NCBI GenBank assembly: GCA_044892525.1
Contig: CM097887.1
Location: forward strand, 50,406,001-50,470,000
DNA from: Schmidtea polychroa
Taxonomy: Eukaryota
Length of the DNA: 64,000 bases
Reading direction: 5' to 3'
The number at the start of each line of letters is the position of its first letter. Position 1 is the first letter of the stretch. A model generated the notes under the pieces. The model searched no databases. It was given only the letters and a program-made list of their open reading frames with translations, and had not been told where the DNA came from. The position numbers and the translations under genes were made by a program. Below are positions 2,700 through 47,700 of the stretch, one piece after another.

Positions 2700-2890
2700 A
2701 TTATAAAGCTATGATTTCTTGGTAGCAGCATTAATTAAATGTTTAACAATTAAATGATAATTTAAGCCTTTTGCTGCGAGATTTATATTTAATATAATAA
2801 TAGAATTTTCAAATATAAAAATTCTTTCATATTATTAAATATATACCTCGCATCAAAAGGCTTAGATTATCATTTAATAGTTTAATATTA
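2700..2890. repeat. Dispersed AT-rich repeat, also present at about 55520-55785
   Basis: atgatttcttggtagcagcattaattaaatgtttaacaattaaatgataatttaagcc...gctgc near 2710-2775 is the near-exact reverse complement of 55709-55773. Internal sub-repeats (cgcagcaaaaggcttaaattatcattt) occur at both loci. Confidence 0.75.
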
Positions 2891-2893
2891 TTA

Positions 2894-3121
2894 CACTTAT
2901 ACCTCGCTATAAGGCTGCTCTTTATACGGCTTTTCGCTATAACGGCCTACTTTAATTACGGCACTTTTTCGATTTACGGCCTAAAATGTTTCGTTATACG
3001 GCGAAAAATCCTATTGAATTTATATGGAATTGTATCAAAATGTATTTGATTCGTTATGCGGCGTTTCGCATTGCGGCCAACTTTCCTGGAACGTATCTAG
3101 GCCGTAAAGCGAGGTATGAGT

Positions 3122-3122
<1 letters not shown>
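2894..3122. mobile_element. Tc1/mariner-type (pogo/Tigger-like) MITE
   Basis: 22-bp imperfect TIRs (CACTTATACCTCGCTATAAGGC and, reverse-complemented, CACTCATACCTCGCTTTACGGC) flanked by TA on both sides; 229 bp, no coding capacity. Confidence 0.85.

Positions 3123-3180
<58 letters not shown>
3123..3180. repeat. (TAT)n microsatellite
   Basis: Direct reading; starts at the MITE TA target site. Confidence 0.97.
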
Positions 3181-3183
<3 letters not shown>

Positions 3184-3198
3184 GAATTATAATTGTAG

Positions 3199-8800: not shown

Positions 8801-9403
8801 GCTTTAGAAATTCGTAAATTTTCGGCATTTTAGCGGCCTTCTGTTCTCGTTCCTCACGTGCTCGTCGCTTAGCAGCCTCACTTAAATATGACTTAGACAT
8901 AGTTAAGGGTGTGCAGCTAATGCAATTATATAATATCCAACTAATTATACAATTATTGTAAATTGATATACAATAAGCAATATTATTTTTATCCTTTTTA
9001 CCGCATAGTAAATATCAACAAAACCCTATGACCTCTGCCATGATGTCGTTATACCGCCATTTTGAATCGAGTAGGCAAGTAAATTGGATTTGACGTTTTA
9101 TTAATAAACAAGTCCTCATCACATAAAAAAAACCAACGTCAAGTAAAGCAAATAATTTAATAGATGAATGGGTGTACATATGTGGTTTACAACTATATCC
9201 AATATAGATTCCTAATAATATTAAATGTATAAACCGTCCAAACTGTGGTTGCTGTCTTAATAAAAATAAAACAAACGCCAAAGCGATGCTTGGTTTGATG
9301 ACAATCGGGGAATTTATAATGCTCGAACGTATAAATTTTACTAATTTTTCGTCCTGGGCCCTTGTGCCGTGCACAACCTGCACAACCTATTGCTACACCA
9401 CTG
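5897..9403 (-). mobile_element. hAT DNA transposon with a ZMYM1/DUF4371-type transposase
   Basis: Perfect 8-bp TSD GATGACGT (5889-5896 and 9404-9411); termini CAGTGGCGTA / CAGTGGTGTA (reverse complement); internal transposase. Confidence 0.95.
6325..8900 (-). pseudogene. hAT transposase with a single frameshift near the C-terminus
   Basis: 822-aa ORF with TTF Zn finger (CHACWVF), FFSIMVDTTQDISKIDQ, RGQGYDGAATM, CAAHNLNL, TRWSSRYD and CERSFSKLKLIK. A 1-nt loss near 6455 shifts off the normal tail MSEGRLTDLAMLSIE...FAQEKARKRPF* (stop 6325-6327). Confidence 0.9.
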
Positions 9404-17760: not shown

Positions 17761-20700
17761 TTATTTAGTTTTTGAGAGAGAGTTTAGATATCTCTCTGGA
17801 GTTAATATTGATGTCCCACCAATGATCACCTCCCAATTCCACCCTCTGCCACCTGCATTGTCTACAGGGAAATTGATATCCTTCTTGATTTGATCAGGAA
17901 TATTTCCAGTTCTTATAGCACTGCACTGGAAGGAATATATCAAATCCCATATTTGCTAAGAAATTATGAAATATACCCATTTTGTGTAATTATAGGCCAC
18001 TCGACATTCCGCCAATGAGACTCCACCTATCACAAAGATTATCAATCTTGGTCCGACATGATTTTCGATTTCATTCGATTTCAACCAGCTTTTTCTTTGG
18101 GGTAAAACGTAACCATTTAAATCTGGCTTTAGATAGTCTGGACTGGATCTTGGCTGATCAAGCTTTCCTATGATACTGGGATTGAAATTACCACGAATCG
18201 CGTCCTAAAGACACACAAAGGTAAATATGCAAACGATATACTCACAACTACCGCTATGAGGTCCTCAATAAATGGGATCCATCTTGATAGAGTATAGCTT
18301 GAACCGTTTAAAATATTTTTTCTGTTTTTAATGAGAAATGGATATTGTTTTACTGGAGTTTTCAATGTCTAAAAATCAATATAAAAATATCTATTAACTG
18401 TAATCCGTTTGCTAGTTGCTATAGCAATGAGAGAATTGTATGGGAACATTATGTCAATTTTGTCAAATTTAGCATCGATAAAATAAAAGTAAATTACAAG
18501 AAATAATTAATAATTTATGGCTATTAAACTTTTTGTTTTTCACCATTGATCGTAAATTATTTATTTTTATTATTAACACGTTAAACACTGGTGGGTCACT
18601 CCGCAACAACATTATCGGCCGCGTACTCACGGATGGGCACACGACATGTTTTAACTGGGGACCGCTTTATGTACAGTAGTCTATTCGCCGGTCCCTCGAA
18701 GAGATATTGTATATCAAATTATTGTACACTAAAAAAATATTCAAAAAATAATATAAGTAACTAAACAATAAAAAAATGCCGGTTCATATGTAAGAAATAC
18801 GATTTTGCAATGCGGTCTTCAACGTGTTAATTGACATCAAATTAATATATTGAAAACGGATGGGACAAATTTGCAATTAGAATTTCATCAATCTTCATTT
18901 AGATCAGGGGTGACCAACCGGTATTGCTTGGTGTACCAAAAAAATATTTTAAAGTTTAGTGGGCTGCACATATAAAAAATTAAAAATATTTATTACAACT
19001 ATTTTATTAGCCTTCAGTTCAGGGGTCTCAAACTCAAACTGGCCTGCGGGCCGCATTAGACTAGTATCATGAGCAGGCGGGCCGCAACATAAATAATTGT
19101 TTTCCAGAACATGTGGAGTCTGAAAGACCGAAGTTAATATTTATTTAATTAAAAACTCAACAAAACTAAAAAACATTTTATTTTAATATTTTAGCATTCA
19201 TTATGCTGCTTTCTTACATTAAAATACTAAAATTAATGTTACTGTGAAATCAATCCATGTTTTGCCCACTTACCTGGCATCGTTTAGCATCAACCAAGGC
19301 ATCAATGTTAGGTTTAATGTCCTGTGATGAAACCAGTCTTAGAGATGCTTGCAGATGTTCATCAGTAAGCCTAGATCTTAATGGCGATTTGATAATTTTC
19401 ATGGAAGAGAAAAATTGTTCGCAAACATACGTAATTCCAAACATTGCTATCATCCTTGCAGCAGCAGAAAGTAACATAGGAAACTTTTCTTTTGAAACAA
19501 ACTGATAAAATTCTAGAATTCCAACATCTGAATACTTTTGCTTCAATATGGAATCACACTGAAGATCTACTAATTCCATCTGCAGTCCTCTGCTATATTT
19601 TCAATCTCAACGGCGAATGGTGTTACAAAAAGCTGAAAATGTGGTTCAAGTGCCTTAAAATCGTTAAAACGTAAAACAAATTGTTGATGCAAATCTGAAA
19701 TTATATCTGCATATTCTTTCAGGGATTGGTTTTCGACTTTTCCTAAGGAATTCAAAGTTGAGAAATGGGCTAAGTTGCCTACAATAAGCTGTCTTTGAAA
19801 TAAAGACAATTTGACTTTGAATGATTTAACACTGTCATACATCTGTGTAATGACTTGTCTTTTGCCCTGAAGTTTTAAATTTAATGCATTCAAATGACCA
19901 GTTAAATCTGTCAGAAAGGCAAGGTCGCAAATAAACTTGGCATCAGTAAGCTGTGGAACCTCATTCTTTTTGAGTTTCATGAAAGAATAAATCTCTTCTC
20001 TAAGTGCAAAAAAACGATTCAGCACATTTCCTCGACTCAGCCATCTAACTTCGGTGTAATAAAGAATTTCCCGATATTCGCTTTCTATACTTGCTAGGAA
20101 AGAAGTGAACTGTCGGTGATTTAAGCCTCGTGAACGTATAAAATTGACCGTTTTCACAACCACATCCATGACACCCATCATTTTAATACTTTTGCTACAC
20201 AGAGCTTCTTGGTGCACAATGCAATGTAAGCTAGTGAAATTATTATTTGGTATATTGAGGCTTTGTAGTTTGGTCTTCACCAATCCAACAACACCGATTG
20301 TTTGTGAACACATAGCTGGCGCTCCATCCGTGACCATTGATACAAGTTTGTTCCATGGTAATCCAGCTTTTTCAAGACAATCTTCCAATCCTTTAAATAA
20401 ATCACGTCCCGTTGTGGTATTCTTCAATGGTACCAAGTCTAGAAATTCTTCCGTTACATTAAATTTACTGTCCACTCCTCTTATAAAAATTGCGCACTGT
20501 GAAGTATCTACCAAATCAGTACTCTCATCAAGAGCGATCGAAAATGCTTCAAAATCTCCAGCCTTTTCAATAAATTGTTTTTTCACATTATCTGCTAAAT
20601 CGGTGATTCTGCTTGCAACTGTATTAGCAGACAGACTTATGCTTTCGAATAGTTTCTTTTTATCAGGAATTAAAATTTCGCTGGCCTTCAAAAAACATTC

Positions 20701-23700
20701 TTTTATGAATGGGCCTTCTGTGAAAGGTCGCGATGATTCAGCTATCATCAGGCTTAGCTCAAAACTTGTTTTTACTGAATTTTCTGCAAATTGGCTTAAA
20801 TTCGAAAAAAAGTTTCGTTGCTTATCAAATTCTATTTTAAGCTTGTTAACTTTTTCATCTCGAATTTTTCCAGTATATTTATCATATTTTTCACGATGCA
20901 TAGTGTCGTAGTGCCGGCGAAGGTTGAACTCCTTTGGTACTGCGATAGTCTGCTGGCATATAAGGCACTGAATTTTATCTCTCGCCTCTGTGAAAAAATA
21001 TAAATTCTCCCACTTCTCTTGGAAAACCCTTCTTTCATCAACGAGTTTTCTTTTTCTAGATAACAAAGTCATTTTCTGATGGGTATAAAAAATTTTAAAT
21101 ATGCCAATTATTATTTGTTGATTGAAATAACATTAAATTAAAATAAACAAAAATTTAAATTATGTAAAATATATGTATTTTTAATATAACTTATATTTTT
21201 TTAATTTAAATAATTTAAATAATAAAATCAATAATTTTTAAAATAAATAAACTGTTTTCGATAAGATTCATAAGAAAGACGTAATAAAGCCATTATTAAA
21301 TTGTACTAGACGTCATATGTATAAATAAAAATAATTAAAAAGATTAGTTTTAATTTATACAGCCAATTATGATTTTAATTGTTAAATAAGTTTGGTTAAA
21401 TTACAAATCTATGTTTTTTCGTTGCGGGCCGCATGCGGCCCGCGGGCCGCATGCGGCCCGCGGGCCGCGTGTTTGAGACCCCTGCTTTAGTTAATGTGAC
21501 ACTTGCTTTTCTATATTTTTTAATATTATTTTCACATCGACTGGTAATTTAGAAGAGGCGCATCGGAATTGATTGGTCGCATTTTCGTCAAGCAAACTGC
21601 TTCGGCATTTCGTTTTTACTACCTTTAACTTTGAAAAAAATGATTCACACCGAAATGTCGTTCCAAAAACTGTGTAATGCATATGACTAGTCGTTTTAAT
21701 TTTGGATATTTATCCTCGATGATATATTTCTGATAGAAATCGAGCTTATTATTAGTATCAAACAAACACTTCAAATCTAAACTCGATTGTAGCTATATTA
21801 ATTCCATTTGCAAATTTGAGGCACCGATTCAACTTCAATATTAAAAGGAGTTGAGAATATTTTGAACAATTCCTCATATTTTTGCAAATATGAAAATCTG
21901 GCCTCGAATTCTTTTATTAATTTGGTGACTTCATTGGAATATTTCAAAAAATCTTTACGGTCACTATGAAAATTATTTAACAATGGAAAATGAATTGAAA
22001 TATACGATCTTAGTTGATTTTTATAAAGCCTAAGTTTTGTTATGAAGAATTTTATATCTTGGTAACATTCCATAATTATTTTATTTTCGCCTGGTAGCTT
22101 CAGATTTAATTCGTTTAATTTCATAGTTATATCTATTATAAAACATAAATCTAGAAGCCATTGATCATCGTAAAAATCACATATTTTATTTCCAGTTTTT
22201 TCCATAAAAAATATTGATACGATTAATTCAATTTATCTTAAATAAAATATTTTGAACTATTATGACCAAAGTATAACAAAGTATAACAAAATATAACAAC
22301 AAGTTTTATATTTGAATGGTATTATTTTCCAATAAAATCTTATATGAGAAATATATAATAGGCTAAATTAAATTTGCTAAAGTGACTTTTTTATTTAATG
22401 AATTTTTAAATATAAAATATAAAAAGTAAAAAAACTTCAAGTGGACCGCAAAAATTTTTAATTGTGCTGCATGCGACCCGCAGGCCGCAGGTTGACCGCC
22501 CCTAATTTAGATAATGACTATTGATCAATCACTTTTTTCATTTTACACGCATTTTTCTCACTGTCTTTCTCAAGTTTTATAAATTTTAGTGTACACTAGA
22601 AAAAAGTAAAAAGGGCAGTGCCAAAAATTTGTGTCAAATACGAAAAAACATTGATAAAAATTAGAATCTAAATGAAGATAAGTGAAATTCAAAAGGAAGA
22701 AACATATCACAGATAGATGATTTTTTCTAATAACAAAGGTTTATATAAATTAGAAATTAAATATAGTGAGGACTACAGTGCACTTTGACCTCAATATCCT
22801 TACAAGGTTATCATACTGTCATTATTATGTCAAGGTCAATAAATATAGGTTAATTGTATCATTTGTGTTTTAATTTAATTTAAATTTAAATAATTAATTT
22901 ATTATTTTAATTATTCCCAGCCAAGGATTATCAGCCACTTAGGGATGATCGCCAAATCTCTAAATGCTGCCGAGGAAAAAGAAAACAAACAAATATAACT
23001 TATTATACAGAATCAAGTATTTCACCAGTTCCAAAAATCAGGATAGTGTGAACTTACTGAAGGGTTGAAGGATTATCAAAGTGATTACGAGTGGTTTTGC
23101 AAATATTGCGCAATAACTTCTGCGGTGTTTTTGACTGAATACAGAAAGGATAATCAAGATACAATGACGTCTATTATTACGTCAGCGTAATTGTGTCTTG
23201 ATTTTCCGTCTTATTTATTATGTTGCGATATTTTTAGCTATCAGGATGATTGATGTAAATTGATTATGAAGAAAGAATTTGATTTCAGTGAAAAATTAAG
23301 TTTTTTCAAATATAAGACTGTGAAAAGCGTATAATCCATTAGAACAAAAGAATTAATTGAACTTGAGAATTCAAATAATTATCTGCCAATCGGATAAGAA
23401 ATTTTCCGTAGGACACATTCCGAATTTGAAATTTGTTTTTATTGTTTTGTGGAACTTCTATCTTAAAAGTTGTGATTGAATTGAATTGTACAAATTATTT
23501 TATGGAAATAATAATTTTAATTTACTGGATTTCACTAAATTTATTTCAAGGAAAGGTTATCCTCTTCCCACAGTCCAATAACTAAATATCGATAAATTAA
23601 TAAAGACATATTTGCATTTTTTATTTAGTTATAAATAGAATTACTGAATTATCATAAATATAAGTCTAACATTTGAGTCTTTCGACAGTACAAAATTTCC

Positions 23701-26700
23701 CATTTTTGCCATCCCTGTCAGAATTTCATTGCAGCGGCCGTCTATCCGCAACTTTTCAATTAACTCGTTGATCGCGCTCTCAATCATTCCTAGGCGAAAT
23801 ATAATTGGTCATTTCTCACTAATCCTTCATGAGCTTACCAGATTGAGTAATTATCAATGCCAATAATAATCGGATTTTCTCAGACATGGTTGCCATAGTA
23901 TTATTGATGACGTTGACTACCATTTTGTCTGGATTCTTTATTGAATTCCCACTGGCATCAGTACCCATGGCTAAATTCTATAATTATCCATAGGTCATAT
24001 TTATATTTAGACCTTCATTTTCTTTTTCATTNNNNNNNNNNNNNNNNNNNNNNNNNNNNNNNNNNNNNNNNNNNNNNNNNNNNNNNNNNNNNNNNNNNNN
24101 NNNNNNNNNNNNNNNNNNNNNNNNNNNNNNNNNNNNNNNNNNNNNNNNNNNNNNNNNNNNNNNNNNNNNNNNNNNNNNNNNNNNNNNNNNNNNNNNNNNN
24201 NNCATTTAAGTTAACCTGGTAATATTGTAGTCATGATATTCTAATGAAACATTTATTATAAACGATATTTTCATATTTTAAAAATATTTGAATACTGATA
24301 AACTGTTATACCGGGTCTTGCACCCATCGCGGCACAAATGCCATTGGCTGGATTCTGTGCTCCAATAGATTCATTAGTCAAAATAAAAAGATCAAATTTG
24401 ATTGATAAATTTTTTCCTATATAAGATTTTCGTGTTTTGTGTTTATTGTTGCGAGGGGAATAATGTAAAAATCTCAAACTACAAAAAATGCACTAAAAAA
24501 TTCTTATCTAACAAGTCTATAAATCGACAGACATTTGGCTAGTCGCATAGTAATTAGTTATATTACTCATTACGAATGAGATTAGATTTGATCGAAACTA
24601 TTTTAACTTTATACTAATTTTATTGTACTCTTTACTGAATATCAATTGTTACAGTTTGTTGTAACGCCAGGTTTAAACAAAAATTCATAAAATGGGGTAG
24701 AAAGAATTCGATTTTACAAACATAAAAATAGAGTTATTAATCTATGTCATTTATGAAGGATTGAAAAATTCAGAAAAGTGTGAAAACGAAAACTGAGCTC
24801 ACTTGTTCACATTCGCATAACTGATTAACACCTGCCTGAAAAGCAGACAAGCAAGCCTCTGATAGATAGAACATGTTCCCCACCGAGGCTGCTTCTTGTC
24901 TGAGGTGGGGCATTTTTTTAACCATAACTTGTAGTTGCTTTCTGACCATGTCCTTATTTGAATTTGGTTCGTTGTAAGAATCTGGAGTTTTATTGGGATT
25001 CTCTGTACTATTGACTGTGTTATCAATGCTTTTCTGAGCACTTGCCAGTTGCTTCAATTTCACTNNNNNNNNNNNNNNNNNNNNNNNNNNNNNNNNNNNN
25101 NNNNNNNNNNNNNNNNNNNNNNNNNNNNNNNNNNNNNNNNNNNNNNNNNNNNNNNNNNNNNNNNNNNNNNNNNNNNNNNNNNNNNNNNNNNNNNNNNNNN
25201 NNNNNNNNNNNNNNNNNNNNNNNNNNNNNNNNNNNNNNNNNNNNNNNNNNNNNNNNNNNNNNNNNNNNNTGCAATGTGGTTGTGTCGTAATTGAATCCAT
25301 AAATCATCGTTTTCTGATAAATCAACATTTACTAGTTTTTGAGTATCAAAATTTTTATAACTAGAAATTGTGCAATAAATAAATACTTAATTTAAATAAA
25401 TATAAATTTTACCTGTAAGTGTCATTTTTTATATCCAATATGTCATAAGCTAAGCATTGCAAATGTAAATCGTGTAGTATAGGAGTTAGAGGATCAATTG
25501 AACGGTCTAATATTAAAAGAACACTTCGATCTTTATGCATTGTCTGAAAACAGAATAATAATAATTTTAATCATANNNNNNNNNNNNNNNNNNNNNNNNN
25601 NNNNNNNNNNNNNNNNNNNNNNNNNNNNNNNNNNNNNNNNNNNNNNNNNNNNNNNNNNNNNNNNNNNNNNNNNNNNNNNNNNNNNNNNNNNNNNNNNNNN
25701 NNNNNNNNNNNNNNNNNNNNNNNNNNNNNNNNNNNNNNNNNNNNNNNNNNNNNNNNNNNNNNNNNNNNNNNNNNNNNNCGGTGAGATCTCCCCGTTTGGT
25801 AATGTACTGCGATACAGTACTGCATATATGGTTTTCAGGATCTTTTTAATATATTTTGATGCCTTTTGCTAGCTTCGCTCCTTCACTCATATTAAACTAT
25901 TTTTTTATATAATACAGTAGATAAAGTTGTTGGGTTTTGGATTACTTCAAGTCGGTTCTCTCTGACTCCTGGTGTTCTTTAAATTAAAACAATGAACGAC
26001 CCAACGTATATTAAAACAACAGGTTCACAATTTATTATCACTTTACAATTACCAATCAAAGTTTTACACGATTCTCTGCTCGGCGTTGATGCTTTGCAAA
26101 CAAACAATATTCACCTTTTGATCCTTTAGTTCTGTTGACTCTCGTTTTCCTCGGTTTCGGTTTGGTTTGATCTCTTTTCTCCTTTCCGTATTCTTAATTC
26201 TATTTCTTCTTTTCCCTACTTCCCTAATTCGTTTACCACTTTTCCTACAGTCTAATTCTTCGAACCCTAGCTGAGGCAAAATGCCGATTTTCTCTGATTT
26301 TCCCTTTGCTTATATACTCCTCGAAATCAGGATGACAAATGGTTATTGCCGAGCCAATCTTTCGTTTGACATTTTCTCCTACGTGTTTGCTTCGGCTGTC
26401 ATCCATAATGGTCCAACGAATCCAGATAATTAATGGCCCTACCGGTCTTCCTACGCGCGTTATCTTCTCCTTACTCTTTTCCCATTAATCATTGTGTCAA
26501 ACTAATGGGCCCAAATCTTCCTTTTGTTTGCCTTTCTTCTTGTTTACCCAGCTCGGGTTTCCTTTATCTCTCGGGTTCTCCATTGGCTCGGGTTTCCCAT
26601 TAGCTCGGGTTTTCCATTAGCCAACTAATTAATTAATTAACGTTTTCTGTTTTCATACGTTTGAATGTTTTTCGACCCTTCCTAACCCTTTTCTGATAAA

Positions 26701-29700
26701 TCCCTAACCATCATCTTGTTGACCATTAGCTAATCTATACCTGTCCCGTTTTTCCCATTCGATTTCGATGATTTTTCCATTTATTGATTTTTCTCGGATT
26801 TCCGGATTCTTGCCTTTCGTAATTGCTTTTTGCCTTTTCTAATACTGTTTCCATCACACTTTCCTTTACTATTGATTCTGTGCACGATCCCGCTTTTATT
26901 TGCCTTTTTTCCTCGCTTACTTTCCATTTGAATTATTATCCTAATTTTTATTTAACTTTTTAATTTTAATTTACAGACCTCAACATATCTCCCCCCTTAA
27001 AAAATTTTTTCGTCCTCGAAATTTATGTTTTGCTGTGATTATGTATTATTACTATTATTATTGTTGTCGTTANNNNNNNNNNNNNNNNNNNNNNNNNNNN
27101 NNNNNNNNNNNNNNNNNNNNNNNNNNNNNNNNNNNNNNNNNNNNNNNNNNNNNNNNNNNNNNNNNNNNNNNNNNNNNNNNNNNNNNNNNNNNNNNNNNNN
27201 NNNNNNNNNNNNNNNNNNNNNNNNNNNNNNNNNNNNNNNNNNNNNNNNNNNNNNNNNNNNNNNNNNNNNNNNNNNNNNNNNNNNNNNNAAAATTTGATTA
27301 TATCCCTTTGTTTGTCGACAGTAAATATTGATAAGATGTGAATTATTTAGATCGAATTAAAAAAAAGATAGTGCTTTAGATATTTAGCCGAAATATTAAT
27401 TAATTTCTTTAATATCTAAATTATAAAGTTTCTATACGATTTTTGATTTTTAATAAATATTTTGATCAAGTATTTTTTTTGAGATATCAAAGTTTTAATG
27501 TCAGAAGATTTCCATTAAAAACTCCTTTCAAGATAACTTCATTATTTTATTACGAATTTATTCAATTGTAAAAATCCTATTTATTTTTTTTTTAATAACT
27601 CAACCACTATATCAATATTTTTTAATGAAAAGTAGAACATAAAGACAATGAAAGTAGACAGATGTGTTTCCGACAGATATAGGTCAAATTCCCAAACATT
27701 TTCAAACTTTGAAGTACATCACCAATCGATCCGGCACGTCTACCGTTTTGGGATAATATATTTCATTGGTTGTATGTTTATAGGCAGCATAGAGAATATA
27801 TTTCTGTCATCCGAAACGAATTCGATTGGTCGATTCGATAATTCCTGCTATTGAAGAAATTTTGAAACTATATCAGTTTATCACAACTGATTTTTTTTCA
27901 TTAATTGTCTCTCTATTAGTTTGTTAATGATATAAAATATATTAAAAAAAATTATATCGTTTTCCTTGTTCTTTATTGCCTAGACGGAAAAGCAGTGGAA
28001 AGTAATTTTATTTATATATTTTCAAATTATTTGCGTTACTTTAGGTTCAGCCAGCGACGGTGAAGGTAGATTAAAGGATTATCTGTTATTATGTTTATTA
28101 AAGACATGAAATATTTTGAAAAAATTTTTCCTTGTTCCTTATTGCATAGCCGGAAAAGCAGTGGAAAGTAATTTTATTTATATATTTTCAAATTATTTGC
28201 GTTACTTTAAGTTTAGCTAGCGATGGTGAAGGTAGATTAAAGGATTATCTGTTTAACTACAAAGGCTATAATCAGTTAATGTGAAGGTAGATTAAAAAAT
28301 TATTTGTTTAAATACAAAGGCTATAATCAGTTAATAAGGCCCGTTATGGATTTAACTGATGTAATCGATGAAAAGTTTGAATTAGCCCTTATTCAAGTCT
28401 TATTGTCAGGGAAATCGTATTTTTTTTTTATAGTTATTTAATTATAATTCTACTAATTTTTTTTTTTTGTTGAAAAGTATTTATTTTATTAATTTTTTTA
28501 AATAGTTATTTAATTATAATTCTACTAATTTTTTATTGAAAAGTATTTATTTTATTAAAAGTATATTAAATAGTTATTTAATTATAATTCTACTAATTTT
28601 TAAATTATTTTATCTATGAATGATATTTTATTGAAAAGTATATTAAATAGTTATTTATTTATAAATATAATTTTATGTCAAGTTGTAGAATTCTTTTCTG
28701 AAGGTCCTAATTAATGAAATTGTTACCAAATGATGACAAATATCATTATTATTTTATTTGTGCTGCTGCACGTCATTTAATGACTCTATCTACAATAAAT
28801 GTTATTTGATATATGTTTAAATTGAATATGAAAAATCTATGTATGGGTCAGTGATATAATATTTCTGAAAATAGAAATTATCATTATTCTTTTATTTATG
28901 TTGTTGTTTTTGATTAAAATTTCACTTAACTATATAACTTTAATTGGAATCATTTTCCATCACAAAACTCACTTATATACAACTTTTATCGGTTCATATA
29001 CTAAATAGTTGGTGGGGTTGGGATCCCAACGATATTTATTATTTTTTTTGTTTTATTGATGGGTTATAATTAATTCACTACCGCCTTTTCCACAGCATGG
29101 TAAAAAGTTAAAGTCTCCTACCGCACCGACCGACTCATGATATCACTTTGTTTACTCCCCATGATAAGCGCTAGCGGTGTCACTAATTGTCGGTAGTCCA
29201 CTTTTGTCTTTCCGCCTGATAAAGTATCTGCTATGAACATTAATATTCCGAATATCTAGATGAATATTTAATTATCCTACGGTTTTGACGTAGCCGATAC
29301 TGATAGGCTCTATAATTAATTACCCTGTGGTTTCTTAACGTAGCCCGTACTGATAAGCTTTCTAATTAATTACCCTGTGGTTTGTTAACGTAGCCCGTAC
29401 TGATAAGCTTTCTAATTAATTACCCTGTGGTTTGTTAACGTAGCCTGTACTGATAAGCGTTCTATATAAGTTTCTGCTTTACCACTTTTCGTTAGTTTTG
29501 TCTTGCCAATCTTCAAGTAAGCATTTTATATTTTATTTCTTTTTCATATTTTTTTTGAATTTTAGTAACGCCATCCATCAATTAATATGGACGTAAGTGA
29601 TTACTTGTCTTTTATTTTTTTGTGATTCTTTTTACCATGCTGTCCTCAACTATTAGTAATGCGTTCCCTCACAGCAACCGAGCATTTGCAATCGCTGTCC

Positions 29701-32700
29701 AGGGTAGCCAAACCCCGGTGATTGCAAGTGCTCGTGTTGCTTATTAAATTAACTTATTGATGCTTATTAAATTAACTTATTTACTTTTTTAATTTTAATT
29801 CGTTAATTTGTTTATGCAACTACCTACACTCATGTTTTGGGTTATATTTTTGATTTTTGATTTTGTATTTACACTAAAAGCAAACTTCTAATTACAGCTA
29901 CTCGTATTTTTCTGACAATTTTAGCCGTATTTATACTTATTAATTTATTACGTAATTCTTACAATCAATTACTTCCCTGCACTAATTATTTGTCGAGGGC
30001 GCCATGGTACGGAGTTTTACATAGTATTTATTTCGTTTTTTCTTTTCAACCCTTACTATTTTAGGCTGTGCCAGAACCTAAGTTTGAACATCTCGATGTT
30101 ATGCAATGGTTATTTAACTGCCATACTAACAGGTTTTTAATTTCTTTTTCAGGGTCCCTTTACCACCGCGTCGAAAGGGATTGAAACGTACCTTTGCCTG
30201 TGTGGATACAGGCAGTAGGTTTGAACGACGCCCGCCTTGCAATGTACGCAGGGAATGGGACTGTGGCATCCAAAGTCCCGTTCTGTTGGACTCTGATGAC
30301 GAATAAACTTTGAATAAATGTTCAGCATACCTTTGTTTTTAATTTATGCTAGAAAGGGTGGGGTAATTGTGTCCCTCTTCGCGATTAGTCTTTGTTACTA
30401 CTAATGTGAAATTATTCTTTACTTATTTAAAATTTTGTTCTCTCGCCCAGTGGGTTACCCATTGCTATATAGTTATGCTAATTCATTAATTACTAATCAG
30501 CCATATTATTTATTTCTAATGCTCATTTAAGGTAGTCATTTCATTATTTGCAACGTTTATTTGAGTTATTCTATTTGCTCGTTTAACTTTGTTCATTTTT
30601 ATCTATTATTCATTCATTTAATTTATCACTTTTTTACTTATTTATTTATATCAATTTGTTTATTCATTTGATTATTTGTTAATTTACTTATAATTATTTA
30701 ACTATTATTTTTTTTTTTTTCTCGAGGACGAAAAAACACCAACAGGGTCCGTTTAAATAATTTATTTTTTTAGTCTAATTGATTTATCTCACCATCATCT
30801 TCCGATTCCTCCATTTCTTCTACTCTCATTCGAAACATCGCGAAATCGGCTTCGTGTTGAAAAAATAAGATTTCCAAACGGTCCAACCGCCTTTTCAGAC
30901 GGAAGTTTTCTTCCTCCAAATCTGTTATTCTGCCCTGCATGCTACGAAACTTTTGTTTTAGTTCTTGCGTACTTGTTTTACACTCTTTGCATGTCATCTC
31001 CGAGGCTTCTTGCATTCTCTGAAATTAAATGATAGTTATTTTTTTTGTATCACTCCTTATTCGCAAAGCATCAACACCTCGCTTCGAATCTCAAACAAAT
31101 TACACAGTTCATCCTATGGTACTTATAAAACATGCACATTGTTAATATAAATGTAATATATTTTTATACACTATTCATGCAGATCACAATTTACAGTCTT
31201 GTCTCATAATATGATGATGGTTGAAGGATAGTTAGTTGTCTCTCTTTTACACATATCAAGATGGTGATGATTATGAATGTTATTGATAAGATGAGAAAAC
31301 CTGTTATTAAAATGTAAATGAGATATTCACAATAGTTGACTGTCAAATCCGAATTTATCATCATTAGTTTGTTTGAGTTAGGTTTTGTCGTCTCTTGGGT
31401 CGGTAATTGGAAAGGTGATGTGGTTGTATATGATTTTCATTTCGATTCATTGATTGTCTTGACTTCCACAAAAACTGTTTGCCATCTGCCTGGATCGGTT
31501 ATCCATCGCTGATATTTAACTGTTAATTCCCATGCCGTCTCTAAATCAGAAGTGTAAAGTGTAAAAAATTGATTACCGGCATCTAATATAGTCAGGGTTT
31601 TTTGTTTGTAGATAATAACAACTCTTTCATCATTTCCTGATTTTCTATATATCGTTACCGGTCCATTTCCAACACTCAGGGTTATACGATTTGACTCGTC
31701 TCTGAGATAGATAGACTGGGTCTCACTCTTAAATCGTGACCATTGGTTTCTCACTACCGTTCCATTTTCGAGGCATATGTTCTCGTAGTAGTTTGCATTA
31801 ACTGAATAATTTTGATTCATTTTCAATTTCTCGTAGCGGATAAATGATTTTCGCGAGTTAAGGGTGTCGACATTTAACCCTTGAAATGTGATTCGCACTT
31901 TCACCAAGTCCACTGGCTTCCAATATATATTGATTCCGTTTATCTCTGGCTCTATCTCGATCAAGTTTCGCATCTCTTTTGTGTGCACTTCTATCGGAAT
32001 TTGCGTGTACCACTTTGACATGTTCTGTCTCAACAGCCATTGGTATTTGTAATTTGGCTTTAACTTTCGTACCGCAACTATATCTTTATCATAATTCAGT
32101 TCTACCACTTGTGCCGTATTGTCTAGTAAATTAATAATTTCTATTTGGTCTGCGATCTCGCATTTACAGCTCCATACTATATTTGTTAGAGTGGAATATA
32201 TATGTATTTTCTCCATTCCTCGGATTTTGTTTACCGCATATGGTAAATCAATTTTTTTGCCGCTCGCAACTGTTACTAACATCAGCATTACTGCTACATA
32301 TAATATCTTATTGATGTAGCTGACTGGTGTTGGATTTTTCGTGAATTTCTGTTTCAATTTTGTTTGACCCGTTACTTTATTCTGCTTGGATCTTAAGGGG
32401 TATCTAGATTCATCTTCCTCTGGCACTAGTTTACATCGATTTGCATGCACAATCATCGGGTTAGCCTTTTTACTCCTGAATGGTAATAACTTCAAATTGG
32501 TTTCGGTGGTGTCGCACACTTTGTAGGGTCCTTTAAATGGTCTTTGCAATTTAGGCGATAAACCTTTGAGAGGTTCCGGTCTGTTCAGATATACTAGATC
32601 TCCAATCTTTATGCCATGCGCATGTGCTTTTTTATCGTATAATTCTTTATATTTCTCTTGGTTGTGCTTTATTGTCAAACCGGCTTTAGTCCATACTGAC

Positions 32701-35700
32701 TGCATTCTTTCTTGCATCAATGCTTTATAATCGGGTATCTCCATATATTGTGAAATTGGTGGTTGGAATTTGAGATCAATCGGCATATTATTTTTCCTTA
32801 AATACATCAAGTAAAAAGGGGTCTCTCCTGTACTTTGATTTACTGCATTTCTGTAGGCAAATAAACACGGCTTTATGAAGTCGTCCCAATCTTTCTGTTT
32901 TCGATTCACATATGATGAGATCATATTTATCAGTGTCCCATTAAATCGTTCCACCAATCCATCAGTTTGTGGATGATATGGTGACGTATTCAATTTCCAA
33001 ATTCCAAATAAGTCTGTGATTGATTTAAACATCTCACTTTGAAAGTTCTTTCCTTGATCAGTTAACAATTTCTTTGGAGTACCATAGCGAAATATTATGT
33101 TTTCCACAAATATTCTAGCAATCGTATCTGCTTTTTGGTTTGGAATAGCGTATGCTTCTGGCCATTTGGTAAAGTAGTCACAAAAAACAACAATGTATTT
33201 GTTTCCTTTTGTTGTTTCCGGTAATGGTCCCAGAATATCCATTGCCGTCATCTCCATTGGTGCTGCAGGTACTGGCATCGGTTTTAATGGTACTTTAATC
33301 TTTTTACCAGTATTTCTGCGGGTGATGCATACTTTGCAACTGTTACACCAATTTTTCACGTCTTGTTCCATTGTCGGCCAAAAGTATTTCAATTTTAATC
33401 TTGATAGCGTCTTGCGCTTTGACAAATGACCTCCCAACGCTCCATCATGATACTGCATCAGTAATGCATCTCTGTGCTTGGCTGGTATAATGATTAATGC
33501 TTCCCCATTTTTCCAACATTTAAGTATTCCATTATGAATTACATATTTGCTGTTTGCATCTGTAAGTCGTTTCCAGTCTTGTTCTTTTCTTATTTTGACC
33601 GCTTGTTCCATAAATTGTTTTAATTCACTATCGTTTTCCTGATCATTTTGAAGTTCAGACATATCATTAACAGCTTTGATTGCTGCGAATATAGTGCCTT
33701 CCACTTTTTCAGGTGTCCCTTCACTATTATTTTCTGGGATTCTCGACATTGCATCTGCATTCGCGTTAGCTTTACCTGTCCGGTATTTAATCTCAAAGTC
33801 GTATTCTTGGAGGGCAATTGACCATCGTATTAACTTACTGGCTGAATCTCTGTGTTTCATTAACCACTGTAATGGATTATGATCTGTATAAACAGTAAAT
33901 TTTCTGCCCAATAAATATTGTCTAAAAGTAGTAATTCCATACACTAACGCTAACGTTTCCTTTTCAATCGTTGAGTAGTTTTTCTCGTGAGGCCTCAATG
34001 ATCTGCTTGCGTATGCTATTACATGGTCCTTTTCACCTTCAAATTTTTGTCCCAATACCGCACCCAATGCAACGTTGCTTGCATCCGTCATCAAGATAAA
34101 TTGTTTTGTAAAATCTGGACATCTTAATATAGGAGTTGTTACTAATTTCTCTTTTAATGTATTGAAAGCGTTTTGTTGTATTTGTCCCCAAATAAATTTA
34201 TTGTTTTTCTTTAGTAACGTATTCAATGGTTGTGCGATATGAGAGAAATCTTTTATAAATTTTCTGTAATAGCTCGCCAAACCTAAAAATTGTCTAACCT
34301 CATCGGCATCTTTTGGTACTGGGTACTCTTCCACTTTTTTGATGTTATCTGGATTAGTTTGTAACCCTCGCCGTGATATTATATGTCCTACATAAATCAC
34401 TTCTGCTTTGCCCCATTCACATTTCGATGGTTTGATTTTTAATTTTGCACTTTTGAGCCGTTTAAATACAGTTTCTACATCCTTCAGATGTTCTTCAAAA
34501 TCATTTGAAAATATTATTATATCGTCGATATATACCAATGCATGTCGAATTCCTCGTAACACATAATTCATTCCTCGTTGGAATGTAGCTGGGGCTCCTG
34601 TTAATCCAAATGGTAACACATTGAACTCATACAGTCCTTTGCCATCCGAGAACGCCGTCTTTCCTCTATCTTCCTCTTTTACTCTAAATTGATTGTACCC
34701 TTTGTTTAAATCAATAACTGTGAAATATCGTGCCTCTCCCATTTGATCAAACATTTCTTGGGATACCGGAATTGGATAAGTGTCTTTCCTTGTAACTTGA
34801 TTTAGCTTCCGATAATCTACGCAAAATCGTAAGTCTCCATCTTTTTTCTTAACTATCACTATTGATGAGGAGAATGGTGACGCGCAGGCCCGGTTTTAGG
34901 CATAGGCGACGTCGGCAGCAGCCTAGGGCGCCGATTTACAAGCGGGCGCCAAATAGTTCTGCTTTTTTTATCAAGTAAATTAAATATTTTATAAACTTTC
35001 TATCTTTATATTGATNNNNNNNNNNNNNNNNNNNNNNNNNNNNNNNNNNNNNNNNNNNNNNNNNNNNNNNNNNNNNNNNNNNNNNNNNNNNNNNNNNNNN
35101 NNNNNNNNNNNNNNNNNNNNNNNNNNNNNNNNNNNNNNNNNNNNNNNNNNNNNNNNNNNNNNNNNNNNNNNNNNNNNNNNTTCCATCGTTGTTTTAGTCC
35201 GATACCGATTACTTATTTCTTTTAAAATTTAAAAAAATACAACGGAAAATCGATTTAAAAAAATATTTTGCAAGTTCAAAAAAGTTAACTGAAAAGCGGT
35301 TTTAAAAAAAATTTAGCATATAGCATGCTCTGAAATTTTTTTAAATTACGCAATAATTTTTAGTTTTATTTTAAAAGAATAAAGTCACATGCAGTAAAGT
35401 TTTAAAAGACTAAAGTAAATGTTAAAAAAGTTAAAAAATAAATAAACAGAAAGTGAAAAAAAAAATAAAATTTAATTAGTGCAGGGCTCAAATTTTTTTT
35501 ATTTAAAGTATATATAATTTCGGTCGTACTTCCAGTATAATTTTTACATATATACAACACAGTAATTTAATTTATATTGGATTTTTCTACACCTATTATT
35601 AAATCTATTATATTCTATTAATTTTTACTTGAGGTAGCATAATGGCAGATAGAAAAAAATTATCTGGCGCACAAAATAGAAAACGTAAAGCTGAAAAGAA

Positions 35701-38700
35701 AAATGAAGAAAAAAAGCAAGAAGGTGCTTTTCTGAAATATATTTGTCGTCAACAATCACAAGATAAAAATCGAAATGAAATGACTCCGAGAAAACAAGTA
35801 TACTGCAATTTGGAAGAGCAAATGGATAGGAACTCTACAACTAGAAATGCAGAGGTGCCTATTTTGACTGAGTTTCCACATACGAATGTGGAAGAAACTA
35901 TAGAAGAAACTGAAGTTGAAACAATTGAAGAAACTGTTGAAGAACCTATAGAAGAAATTGTATTAGAAACTATAGAAGACACTGAAGAAATTTTAATTAA
36001 TGAAACTTTGGAAATATTAGAAAGCGTAAATTCGAGTCTTGATTATAGTGATCCGGCAACTTGGTTAAATTCACATGACTTACGTTCTGGCCGTTTGAGG
36101 CAAATTTTGGTTGAACACGGACCAGAACAAATTGAAGAATTTGATTTTCCTCAAAATGAGAGCCATAGAAAATTTTCAATGAATTTTTATAGAAGGAGAC
36201 TTGCAAATGGAGAAGAAATGCGGCGTCATTGGCTACAGTATTCCAAAACAACTAATTCGGCTTTCTGCTTTTGTTGCAAAATTTTTAATAATAACCAGCG
36301 TGTAATACATCTCTCCGATAAAGGATCAAGCGATTGGAAAAATATGTCTGTAATTTTAGAAAGACATGAGAAAAATAAGGATCATTTAATTAATTTTCAA
36401 ACTTGGAAGGAGCTAGAATTGCGTTTAAAAAAGAATAAAACTATTGACCAGGATAATTTGCGTCTCATAAAACAAGAAGAGAGACACTGGCAACAAGTCT
36501 TAGAGCGTCTTATAGGTCTAGTTAAAGTGCTTGCTACGCAAAACATTGCATTTCGCGGAAGCAATGAAAAATTGTATTCTCCTGGAAATGGAAACTTCCT
36601 TAGCTTTGTAGAATATTTGGCCTCTTTTGATCCAATTATGGGTGAGCATCTTCGCAGAATAAAGAACAATGAAACACAAGTTCATTATTTGGGAAAAGAT
36701 ATTCAGAATGAGTTAATACAACTTTTATCTAAGAGTATTAAAACAAAAATTTTAAAATCGATTTCCATGGCTAAATATTTTTCAATAATCCTGGATTGCA
36801 CACCAGACGTTAGCCATACTGAACAAATGACGTTGATTATTCGTTTTGTCCATACAAATACAGAAAATTGTGATTTAGATCCCATATGCATAAGAGAACA
36901 TTTTTTGGGATTTGTGAAACTAACAGATACAACTGGTGCTGGTATGACCGATGAAATCGTTCAGATGTTAGCAGATATGTCATTACCTATTGAGAACTTG
37001 CGTGGCCAAGGATACGATAATGGTAGCAATATGAAAGGCAAAGAAAATGGCGTGCAACGGCGAATTCTTAATCTAAATCCACGAGCACTATTTGTTCCTT
37101 GTTCTGCGCATTCTTTGAATCTGGTTGTTAATGACGCTGTAAGCTGTTGTTTAGATGCTACATCATTTTTTATGTTAGTGCAACGAATATATGTCTATTT
37201 TGCCGCTTCAACACGTCGATGGGAAGTTTTAAAACGTCATGCTTCAAACTTGACAGTGAAGCCATTGAGCGATACAAGATGGGAGAGCCGAATCGATGCC
37301 CTTAAACCTCTACGCTATCAGCTAAGTAAAGTTATTGCTGCACTTATTGATATTTTTCAAGATACTTCTCAAACAGGAGTTTCTGGTAATACTTCACGTA
37401 TAGAAGCACAGGGCCTTGCTAAAGCTATTTCGAATTTCGAGTTTGTAGTTTCTGTTATTATCTGGTATGATATTCTTTTCAACATAAATATTACAAGCAA
37501 ACAACTTCAATCTGAGAAAATTAATATTCAAGATGCTATGAAGCTACTAGAAGATACCAAAAAATTTCTATTCAACTCCCGAAATGATGAAGGTTTTGAA
37601 AGAATATTGGTAGATGCGCGAGAACTTGCTGAAGAATCAGAAATTTCCCCAATCTTTAAACAAACTCAGCGTATCAGAAAACAAAAAAAACAGTTCGAAT
37701 ATGAAGCCAACGATGAGCCCATTCAGAACCCAAAAGAAAAATTTAAGATCAGCTTTTACTTCGCAGTTTTGGATAGAGCTTTAAAATCTGTTGAGCAAAG
37801 ATTCACCCAAATGTCAACGATAAATTCAACATTTGGATTTCTATACAACATACATAATTTGCAATATATTTCGTCAAAGAAAATATTAGAGGATTGTCTT
37901 AAACTGGAAAATTTTTTACGGCACGATGATTCTAAAGATATTGATGGTACAGATTTATTGAACGAATTGATATTTATAGCTAGACATATTCCAAAAAACT
38001 TATTGCCGGAAGATGTACTTAATTATATTTGTAAAAATAATATAGTGGACAGCGTTCCAAATATATTTGTTGCTTTGCGAATTTTATTAACCCTACCAGT
38101 TTCTGTGGCAAGCGGTGAACGAAGCTTTTCGAAGCTTAAACAGATCAAAACATATATAAGATCTACAATGTCACAAGAACGGCTTGTGGGATTAGCAATA
38201 TTGTCGATTGAACACGAAATGGCGCGTGATATAGATACGAAGTTGCTGCTTGAAGATTTCGCTAAACTAAAAGCACGAAAAATTAAATTTTAAATGGTTT
38301 TTGTTTTTATATATATTTTTGTGTAATAAATAAATGAAGTATAGTTATTTTATTTTCATTTACTTCTTTAATTATTGGGTTTGTTTCTAGACTAGAGGCG
38401 CCATTTTTTTAGTTTGCCTAGGGCGCCAAATACTCTAGCGTCGGGCCTGGTGACGCGCTATCTCGAATTATTCCAAATTCCTTCATTGCTGTAATCTGTC
38501 TATCGCTTTCATCTTGATGAACGTAGGGGATTCTGTATGGCTTTATTTTTATTGGAGTTTCGTCTAATAACGGTATTTCATGCTCAATTACATTGGTTAA
38601 ACCCAAATCATATTCGTGTTTGGCAAAGATATCTCGGTATTTCCTCAACAGTTTTGTGAATTCCTTTTTCTGCCTCTCATTTAAATCATTGCTTACCACT

Positions 38701-44700: not shown

Positions 44701-47700
44701 TTTGGACTTGTTTCTGACTTCTGAGGTTGTATCGGTTCACTTTGAGCTAAACTTCAAACGTTAAACAATAATTTAAAATTATTTTTCAACTTCTTTTAAA
44801 TCTCCCAATAATAGCCTTTTATAATCTCGTTAACACTATTTTCAAACTTCTAAGCCGACTTTCACTCGCGTCAGTACTAATTCTTTTTATAATTCCTTTT
44901 TCACTAGCTTTCAATAATTTCCCTCCGACTTTCAATCACGTCGGTACTATTTTTTTCAACAATTAATTTTTTCACTAACTTTCAATAATTTTCCGCCGAC
45001 TTGCGATCACGTCGGGCTCACCAGAATATATGTTGGGTTTTGGATTACTTCAAGTCGGTTCTCTCTGACTCCTGGTGTTCTTTAAATTAAAACAATGAAC
45101 GACCCAACGTATATTGAAACAACAGGTTCACAATTTATTATCACTCTACAATTACCAATCAAAGTTTTACACGATTCTCTGCTCGGCGTTGATGCTTTGC
45201 AAACAAACAATATTCACCTTTTGATCCTTTAGTTCTGTTGACTCTCGTTTTCCTCGGTTTCGGTTTGGTTTGATCTCTTTTCTCCTTTCCGTATTCTTAA
45301 TTCTATTTCTTCTTTTCCCTACTTCCCTAATTCGTTTACCACTTTTCCTACAGTCTAATTCTTCGAACCCTAGCTGAGGCAAAATGCCGATTTTCTCTGA
45401 TTTTCCCTTTGCTTATATACTCCTCGAAATCAGGATGACAAATGGTTATTGCCGAGCCAATCTTTCGTTTGACATTTTCTCCTACGTGTTTGCTTCGGCT
45501 GTCATCCATAATGGTCCAACGAATCCAGATAATTAATGGCCCTACCGGTCTTCCTACGCGCGTTATCTTCTCCTTACTCTTTTCCCATTAATCATTGTGT
45601 CAAACTAATGGGCCCAAATCTTCCTTTTGTTTGCCTTTCTTCTTGTTTACCCAGCTCGGGTTTCCTTTATCTCTCGGGTTCTCCATTGGCTCGGGTTTCC
45701 CATTAGCTCGGGTTTTCCATTAGCCAACTAATTAATTAATTAACGTTTTCTGTTTTCATACGTTTGAATGTTTTTCGACCCTTCCTAACCCTTTTCTGAT
45801 AAATCCCTAACCATCATCTTGTTGACCATTAGCTAATCTATACCTGTCCCGTTTTTCCCATTCGATTTCGATGATTTTTCCATTTATTGATTTTTCTCGG
45901 ATTTCCGGATTCTTGCCTTTCGTAATTGCTTTTTGCCTTTTCTAATACTGTTTCCATCACACTTTCCTTTACTATTGATTCTGTGCACGATCCCGCTTTT
46001 ATTTGCCTTTTTTCCTCGCTTACTTTCCATTTGAATTATTATCCTAATTTTTATTTAACTTTTTAATTTTAATTTACAGACCTCAACAAAGTAAAATAGA
46101 CTTGAGAACTAGTCGCTTGTCAGAATGCGCGGTGGCTAGCTCAAGGCACAATTCGTTCGATCGGTAATGTGTTAAATGTTAAACAAGTAATTGATAAAAT
46201 AAGATTTCGATGCGGAATATATATTAAATTGAATTTTCTCATTTAATTTAATATTAATTCTGCAGTGAAAGCTTATTTTATCATTTACTTGTTTAAAAAT
46301 AATAGTTATAATTATTATTAAACTTATTATTAATTATTTACTTACAAGGCCCATGAACCCATTCGCTTCATCATTTTTGAACATTTCTTGTTGAACTTTA
46401 ATTGCAAATCTTTGTGCCTCTTCTGTCCTAAAAAACCAATTAAAAATCTCAAAGTAAACAAAATTTAGTTAAAAAGAAAATATAATCAAAATTTATTATT
46501 AAAAATAAGCAAGACTAAATTTGACATTTAACGCTAACCTCTTGATTTTTTTAAAGAAAAATAGTTTGAATTTATATTTTGGATTTTTAGATAGTGATAA
46601 AACAAGGGAAATCTGCTTGCATTCCTAACTTAGATGGTCACAAAACAATGACATTATCATTGGTCATTAAATTTATTTTATTTTCTAATTCTTATTGTTA
46701 AATTAGATTTGACTAATATTAAAGAGAAATTGCTTTTAAAGTATAATACTACCCGAATAAAGAATTCTACTATCAATTTTACCCAATACTTACAATACTT
46801 ATCCCGGCAATACGAGGAGTTTCAGTTACGAATTGAACAAATTGTGTAAAATTATTTATTCTAGATGGCCATTCCCAACCCAAATAGTATATTTTGCATT
46901 AGAATCTCTTTTATGCTTAAAGTATAATTGGAATCATCACCTTATACTTTAGTAAATATAGTTATAGATAACAATTATATTTGAATTATATGACCAATAT
47001 AAACAGCTATCAAACTATCAATTGTGACCGTCACTGACATTATTGTCACTTGGTTATATTAACTGATTCCGGATTATTATTATCATTAAAACAACAAATA
47101 AAAAATTCTCTTTATTTACAAAATTAATAAAGCATTGGCAAAAATTTGAGACGAAAATAAAACCAAAATTATAGTGAAAACTTTTTATGTAGAAAAAATT
47201 TAATTAACTAAAATTTATATTATTTTAACCTTCGCGGAACATTAATGAATAAATAAAAATATACAAGTAATGAAAATTAAAAATGTTTGGAATCAAAGAA
47301 AAAATACAATAAATGATTTTTACACAAAATTTAAGACTGTAGGGTTCTGTGATTTGACAGCTTCTTCATATACGATGCCTCTTCTAATGGTACACTAGTT
47401 TAGAACTTATATAGATCTTATTTGATTCGAATGTCATTACAATATTTAGTTGTGTTTAAACCGATGTTGAGATACAATAATGGGTTTTTGAAACTTATTT
47501 TGTAATATGTGGCCACAGCTGTAATATTTTATGTATAATAGTAATGAAGTGATCAGGTTCTCGGATCTGGCAGTAATATGATTGTGTTCAATCCCCAATG
47601 GTACCATATCTGTTACATAATAGTGATGAAAAACAAATAAACTTAGTAGGTAGATATAGTGGCCTACGGCAGCAATAGGGGGGGGGGGGGGTGGGTCAAA

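Follow-up and report, generated by a model that had tools for sequence, protein, structure and literature searches.

A likely intron-containing antisense accessory gene in a Burro-like Ty3/Gypsy retrotransposon of Schmidtea polychroa

We analyzed a 64,000-nucleotide (nt) window of the Schmidtea polychroa genome (assembly GCA_044892525.1, contig CM097887.1, positions 50,406,001 to 50,470,000), which contains a young Burro-like Ty3/Gypsy long terminal repeat (LTR) retrotransposon on its minus strand. A short exon on the opposite strand of this element, between pol and the 3' LTR, has evolved under purifying selection. This exon is likely the end of a spliced antisense accessory gene that has its own predicted promoter and a predicted 66-amino-acid (aa) product, a protein likely to regulate the element or host silencing from within the nucleus. 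The original prediction, made from the letters of the window alone, had joined eight exons between 29260 and 30306 into one antisense reading frame. Selection on the last exon in the plus frame, measured across 109 copies, supports its central claim that the retroelement carries an intron-containing, protein-coding antisense gene, and most of the chain upstream of the coding end is revised here. A real antisense accessory gene is thus the likely verdict; the function given to it is inferred.

Similarity searches of the same genome yielded 357-409 candidate copies of the element. Copies for comparison were selected by similarity, by their rank in the pol tail, or by motifs specific to older subfamilies. 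After removal of identical rows, 109 of 115 blocks were left, comprising 50 of subfamily A (young), 32 of B and 27 of C (oldest); the sample is non-random in that B and C were deliberately sought. Copy comparison supports the last exon as first proposed, with its frame, stop and poly(A) signal.

30153-30306, plus strand: last coding exon, 50 codons and stop, under purifying selection, with a basic PPRRKGLKR and a C-terminal VLLDSDDE
30313-30318, plus strand: poly(A) signal AATAAA, after the stop in 98 of 107 copies

Changes common to at least 10 of 108 copies were treated as widely shared and compared with private changes. Within the last exon, 28 changes are widely shared, and 21 of these are synonymous against an expectation of 28% (p 4e-7), as compared to 21 of 90 private changes. 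The caution attached to the original model, that it might have arisen by chance, is largely removed for this exon. Subfamily C differs from the window copy by 27 common changes; in the plus frame 21 of these are silent, among them exchanges at the first position of Leu and Arg codons. The ratio of nonsynonymous to synonymous divergence (dN/dS) between A and C is 0.096. The corresponding ratio of proportions (pN/pS) is 0.16, whereas the pol tail of the same element has 0.36; the pN of 0.074 is smaller than the distances in the introns (0.14-0.18). Because shared changes are synonymous and private changes are neutral, selection acted during replication inside the element and was followed by neutral decay after insertion. 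In the codon usage of this exon, GC content at third positions is 0.54-0.64 in subfamily C versus 0.46 in the window copy.

These data bear on the reading that the block, whether captured long ago from a host gene or modeled by chance on a strand rich in T, is fixed in the element and unexpressed, with leader exons that are relics. Strongly synonymous changes shared by lineages, including those between B and A (pN/pS 0.17), together with neutral private changes after insertion, place selection inside the element, although backward capture of intron-bearing host DNA by this element is observed, the upstream exons contain shared frameshifts and lost sites, and spliced RNA is not seen in contigs of presumed-RNA runs. 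For the last exon, a relic or chance origin is already largely refuted, and we regard this reading as highly improbable.

The choice of strand requires separate treatment. The mirror sense frame was tested directly because it shares third positions with the plus frame, is uninterrupted in 94 of 97 copies and is likewise under purifying selection (dN/dS 0.24), which counts against an antisense gene. When a codon model was run on identical nucleotides for both frames, the plus frame gained 20.8 log-likelihood units (lnL; omega 0.30) and the mirror frame gained 12.9 (omega 0.39), 7.9 lnL worse than plus. The same model chose the sense strand for both strand controls, the pol tail and a small sense open reading frame (ORF) of 81 aa. 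An earlier frame comparison with IQ-TREE had slightly favored the mirror frame by 6-12 units; it used non-identical masked data and was hence replaced. The intron at 30109-30152 gives no purifying signal in the codon model. Of 22 C copies, 20 have a stop in frame within it, and in A it is 43-48 nt long.

It follows from a mirror assignment that the selected frame would be an exon of a spliced sense accessory mRNA, with the plus gene as its shadow. Such an exon would have the selected small sense ORF just upstream, and in many copies of B and C its frame extends by ~30 codons as far as a stop that they have in common. However, it has no conserved ATG, it ends early in at least 27 of 50 A copies, and there is no purifying signal over 30109-30152. 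Six shared changes are synonymous on the plus strand alone and two on the minus strand alone. The TATA box, initiator, branch points, pyrimidine tracts and AATAAA are all oriented plus. A sense exon is therefore a distinctly unlikely explanation, and we proceed with the antisense gene.

The gene model was revised upstream of the last exon, and the following features were used.

29288-29464, plus strand: array in which a 50-bp repeat occurs 3.5 times, with a GATA-type site (TGATAA) in every copy; a likely enhancer
29463-29497, plus strand: predicted internal core promoter, with TATATAA at 29463-29469, initiator TTAGTT at 29492-29497 and predicted start at A 29494
29494-30003, plus strand: predicted spliced 5' leader with putative junctions, in which exon lengths are fixed and intron lengths vary
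29494-29516, 29566-29592, 29657 or 29675-29703, 29799 or 29898-29951, and 29998-30003, plus strand: approximate leader exons
30004-30006, plus strand: predicted start codon, which closes a micro-exon of 9 nt (GCC-ATG, followed by a GTACG donor)
30065-30108, plus strand: middle coding exon with donor 30109, read in a frame that differs from the one first proposed

The revised coding sequence joins the ATG at 30004-30006 to 30065-30108 and 30153-30306, giving 66 codons. It is intact in 72 of 104 covered copies (42/49 A, 21/29 B and 9/26 C). The original chain had no start codon, and the missing codon is most likely the ATG at 30004-30006, which is present in 13/13 C and 17/19 B copies and is followed by a GT donor in 32/32. 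In the middle exon, omega is 0.36 with a gain of 3.5 lnL in the revised frame, versus 1.06 and 0.0 in the frame of the former exon 7. Upstream, the TATA region (29464-29470) has no variable site in 91 copies, and its spacing to the initiator is 31 nt in 80 of 82. Because this pair lies downstream of the 50-bp repeats, the first exon and intron of the original chain, located in or at the edge of the array, are likely promoter DNA. The array covers most of that intron, and by eye the exon resembles a degenerate further repeat copy just before it.

Every element of the original chain is present in the sequence as described, namely its coordinates, GT..AG ends, TACTAAC, open frame, AATAAA and intron lengths (214, 49, 64, 194, 46, 51 and 55 nt). 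The check suggested at that time, dN/dS and splice-site conservation among copies, separates its parts: the last exon is under selection, acceptors 30064 and 30152 and two GTAAG introns hold, and several upstream junctions are not kept. No more than 47 of 102 copies have AG at the acceptor 29896-29897, and no more than 55 of 106 have GT at the donor 30014. The donor at 30098 keeps its GT in 108 of 109 copies, yet it depends on the disfavored exon-7 frame. Older copies have 22 extra nt within the former exon 5. The exact chain is peculiar to subfamily A, with exons 2-8 intact in 6/46 A, 0/23 B and 0/17 C copies (6/86). Junction turnover is also evident at the fourth leader exon; in subfamily A acceptor 29798 is lost and acceptor 29897 is present in 46 of 47 copies, and the latter occurs in no B or C copy.

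The original chain implied a 123-aa membrane protein, which the copies do not support. A related possibility is a longer membrane-anchored product of about 120-150 aa, in which splicing would join a hydrophobic segment from upstream to the charged tail. When the alternative in-frame acceptor 29674 is used, 36 of 46 A copies have the longer chain open, yet it is intact in 0 of 40 B and C copies, and it lacks an in-frame ATG downstream of the predicted start. The upstream ATG at 29587 opens an ORF of 2 to about 85 codons across copies. In some C copies it reaches 78-85 codons, encodes two hydrophobic stretches and shows a weak excess of synonymous changes (8/19 and 9/17), and one of 84 copies gives the fused frame, whereas 36 of 46 A copies have at most 3 codons. 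Length changes in 29799-29951 frequently break the triplet register, and the exon-7 frame that such a product requires is neutral. We consider a membrane-anchored product very unlikely; the long upstream ORF of C copies may be what is left of a fused form or a second cistron now in decay. The 66-codon gene is retained as the preferred model.

Constraint was also examined at the predicted signals. Promoter, splice and poly(A) positions are variable at 6 of 75 sites, as compared to 80 of 316 neighboring sites (p 4e-4), a comparison in which several signal sites were picked after the alignment was viewed. GT and AG dinucleotides are retained in 96% of copies at used sites and in 82% at unused sites.

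Several observations weigh against a spliced antisense gene. A plain dinucleotide count shows no excess constraint (4/22 versus 68/298). The antisense strand of the element is T-rich over its whole length, which inflates chance splice-like signals, and slippery T-runs in the leader introns weaken the argument from fixed exons and variable introns. The middle-exon frame has moderate support (6/13 changes synonymous, p 0.07). Among the 26 subfamily C copies with the low intact count given above, 11 have lost a site, including a change to GC at donor 30109 in 3. The predicted peptide leaves no trace in sister families (2 loci and 20 loci), two of which are without the gene, and homologues offer no functional support. 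Finally, no spliced GT..AG joints were found at the predicted introns in contigs of seven presumed-RNA runs (two species labels) and one likely DNA run, and the presumed-RNA contigs cross the introns unspliced. This result neither shows nor excludes a transcript, because sense genomic RNA would look the same, and contigs drop rare forms and carry no strand. In RNA-run contigs under the second species label, 6 of 6 coding-exon changes, the 3 in the middle exon among them, are synonymous in the revised frames (codons assigned by hand). Runs under this label (X7, X10 and X12-X14, compared with 29440-30624) contain the same element family at roughly 93-97% identity, which may reflect a close relative, a label synonym or horizontal transfer.

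One conserved segment of the leader has a different explanation.

29675-29739, strand uncertain: conserved RNA hairpin with a ~25-bp stem, a bulge and a short apical stem-loop, identified by folding z-score and paired changes

The z-score is -8.1 on the plus strand and -6.7 on the minus strand, and 7 of 57 distinct sequences have double-sided changes at several pairs. A distant family without the antisense gene has the same hairpin apex, carried by a compensated stem and placed right at the border of that family's own conserved block. The region 29000-31500 has no match to Rfam families. The hairpin is a cis element of the retroelement RNA. The coding role formerly assigned to exon 4 finds no support; that exon forms one arm of this shared hairpin, which accounts for its conservation.

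The host element was defined by its LTRs, flanks and Pfam matches.

25928-46088, minus strand: Burro-like Ty3/Gypsy LTR element that hosts the candidate gene
31437-34895, minus strand: reverse transcriptase, RNase H and integrase (Pfam domains), with a ~290-aa tail without known family
35633-38293, plus strand: hAT transposase (Pfam) of a DNA transposon inside pol
30770-31015, minus strand: small sense ORF, 81 aa, coiled-coil-like, under purifying selection

The two LTRs (25928-26985 and 45031-46088) are 1058 bp each and 99.8% identical, and the element is flanked by a 4-bp target duplication, AAGT. Its Pfam set comprises gag, CCHC, ubiquitin-like, Bcl-2, a Monjiviricetes fusion glycoprotein, protease, reverse transcriptase, RNase H and integrase, and the Gypsy order of the last four is present between the LTRs. 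The fusion glycoprotein (PF24664, E 7e-94) shares one ORF with the CCHC knuckles and the protease and thus lies in frame between gag and protease. The ubiquitin/SUMO-like domain gives weak Pfam matches below the cut-off (E 7e-4 and 0.0028), as does the Bcl-2-like domain (E 0.0017; Bcl-2 structure matches, E 0.06-0.1). Pol is interrupted by the hAT insert of ~3.5 kb, so that the element measures 20.2 kb with the insert and about 16.6 kb without it. It is shorter than Burro1-4 (>30 kb) and is classed only as "Burro-like".

In the 81-aa sense ORF, 28 of 41 shared changes are synonymous, omega is 0.23 and the mirror frame contains stops. A second small sense ORF downstream of pol (31191-31364, minus strand) encodes 57 aa with a hydrophobic helix; its selection signal is not significant. 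The post-integrase extension (31437-32300, minus strand), which has no homologue or Pfam match, begins with a signal-like hydrophobic stretch and has 38% identity in a sister family. Divergence between subfamilies A and C is pS 0.47-0.58 in the 3' block (30153-31015) versus 0.14-0.17 in pol (31440-32590), which suggests recombination between lineages. At the position of the antisense gene, a third family and some copies of a second (L132 and L143) have a sense ORF that by eye resembles a DEDD-type exonuclease and would parallel the ORF3s of bdelloid elements (PMC5408684). Elsewhere in the window are an EF-G-like fragment and three more hAT/DUF4371 transposase remnants (3199-4557, 6432-9014, 19570-21132 and 57949-58497).

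The origin of the gene was considered in light of the adjoining region.

27030-29210, strand not assigned: variable cargo bay, a 1.3-3.6-kb mosaic that changes from copy to copy (copy comparison)

This bay extends from the 3' LTR to about 29210 and adjoins the candidate gene. In one copy, L043, the bay contains at 2708-3540 (plus strand) two DPY19 exons (E 8.5e-13 and 6.2e-8) and a Ras/Rab G1 piece (E 7e-4), three host-gene matches among 114 frames scanned. The DPY19 exons are separated by a 45-nt GT..AG intron and have the orientation of the candidate gene, antisense to the element. The intact intron shows that unspliced host DNA was captured antisense, and the 44-58-nt introns are host-sized. 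This cargo is also present in L045 and largely in L049 and L050; it could be a source of piRNAs against host genes, as for TART-A. The candidate gene itself most likely arose in the same way, from unspliced host DNA captured backwards. A host donor gene was not found among the 150 of 409 candidates scored, and a real donor could hide behind the ~400 copies. One locus considered as a possible donor, L082, was rejected as a rearranged element fragment. Among the 55 old copies that contain the gene block, 4 lack any match to pol, the LTR or the small ORF in the 6 kb analyzed. In a sister-family copy (L032, 3682-3966, plus strand), the bay holds an intronless antisense ORF of 94 aa with a signal-peptide-like start and no Pfam match.

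The predicted product of the revised gene is a basic 66-aa protein with an acidic tail and no Pfam domain. Its last exon includes PPRRKGLKR, which resembles a nuclear localization signal, and a C-terminal [VI]LLDSD[DE]E that is kept across subfamilies. No homologues of the 50-aa last exon were found among proteins of 27-90 aa, proteins of 91-2000 aa, 1.84 billion representatives or the ESM Atlas. It has no Pfam match at E up to 1, and hence no TRP28 (PF04195). The combination of hydrophobic and acidic/Ser residues at the C terminus bears a resemblance to a SUMO-interacting motif (SIM) with a CK2 site. Its C-terminal placement would be Daxx-like. SIMs are loose motifs (PMC12751080). No host SUMO was picked out among the matches, which looked like ubiquitin repeats and ubiquitin-like domains. 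A role of the product against SUMO-dependent silencing is possible, as judged from these motifs, and we treat it as doubtful.

Introns of an antisense gene can persist in a retroelement because full-length sense RNA carries them reversed; the spliceosome ignores them, and reverse transcription copies them intact. After integration, RNA polymerase II would start near 29494 under the control of the 50-bp repeats. The plus transcript would lose its short host-sized introns (44-64 nt, plus one longer) and be polyadenylated after 30318. In most young copies the upstream ORF has 2 codons, which would allow re-initiation at the ATG at 30004, and the 66-aa product would then enter the nucleus and regulate the element or host silencing. 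The fullest version of this scheme, in which an env-bearing animal retrotransposon keeps a multi-intron antisense gene that has its own TATA-initiator promoter and was born from host DNA captured backwards in the 3' cargo bay, and a nuclear 66-aa product blunts silencing through a SUMO-binding tail, is rather unlikely as a whole.

HTLV-1 HBZ, a loose parallel, is a spliced antisense gene of a retro-agent that encodes a small bZIP regulator. Its promoter lies in the 3' LTR (PMC7264820). In contrast, the promoter predicted here is internal, about 2.5 kb from the LTR, and the gene has about six predicted short host-type introns and no bZIP. Plant Tat/Retand/Grande Gypsy elements carry antisense ORFs termed aORF-3R, for example maize Grande gene23, which has its own upstream promoter, a nuclear product and a presumed regulatory function (PMC7264820 and PMC11963269). 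Like these, the present gene is antisense, lies between pol and the 3' LTR and is near tandem repeats, and its frame between pol and the LTR is conserved among copies with the mirror frame disfavored. Plant aORF-3R are long ORFs, mostly TRP28, and neither of the two papers just cited contains the word "intron". The present case differs in its animal host, its env-like gene and a predicted multi-intron, 66-codon mini-gene without a Pfam domain.

Planarian Burro/GYPSM1 giant Gypsy elements encode one polyprotein, in which gag-CCHC, ubiquitin-like and Bcl-2-like domains are present and a fusion glycoprotein of mononegavirus type lies in frame between gag and protease (PMC6431247). The window element matches this architecture, its ubiquitin-like and Bcl-2-like domains being the weak matches given above, and the match points to a likely planarian host. 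It differs in size, as given above, and in its antisense gene, "antisense" being a word absent from that review. TART-A captured nxf2 (PMC7785250), and Drosophila micropia makes antisense RNAs (PMC7264820). The present element is like these in that a retroelement 3' region contains captured host sequence or internal antisense transcription, and the variable bay alone resembles them. Unlike those non-coding cases, the fixed block here is under protein-level selection.

Literature searches, at the level of search results, gave no animal LTR element for which a spliced coding gene in antisense had been reported. Antisense exons have reportedly been described for some Cer elements of C. elegans, which may lower the novelty. 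ORF-based pipelines cannot see antisense mini-genes that are spliced, because annotation treats LTR elements as free of introns. A search for just such transcripts is called for in a 2020 review (PMC7264820). This family would place the predicted route side by side, with a bay that takes up host DNA, unspliced and in reverse, adjoining an intron-bearing gene that is fixed and under selection. Were the fullest version of the scheme true, a flatworm element would possess an accessory factor in the style of complex retroviruses. The family's hundreds of copies in three age classes open selection, splice-site turnover and any effect on silencing to direct testing, with RNAi in a planarian host.

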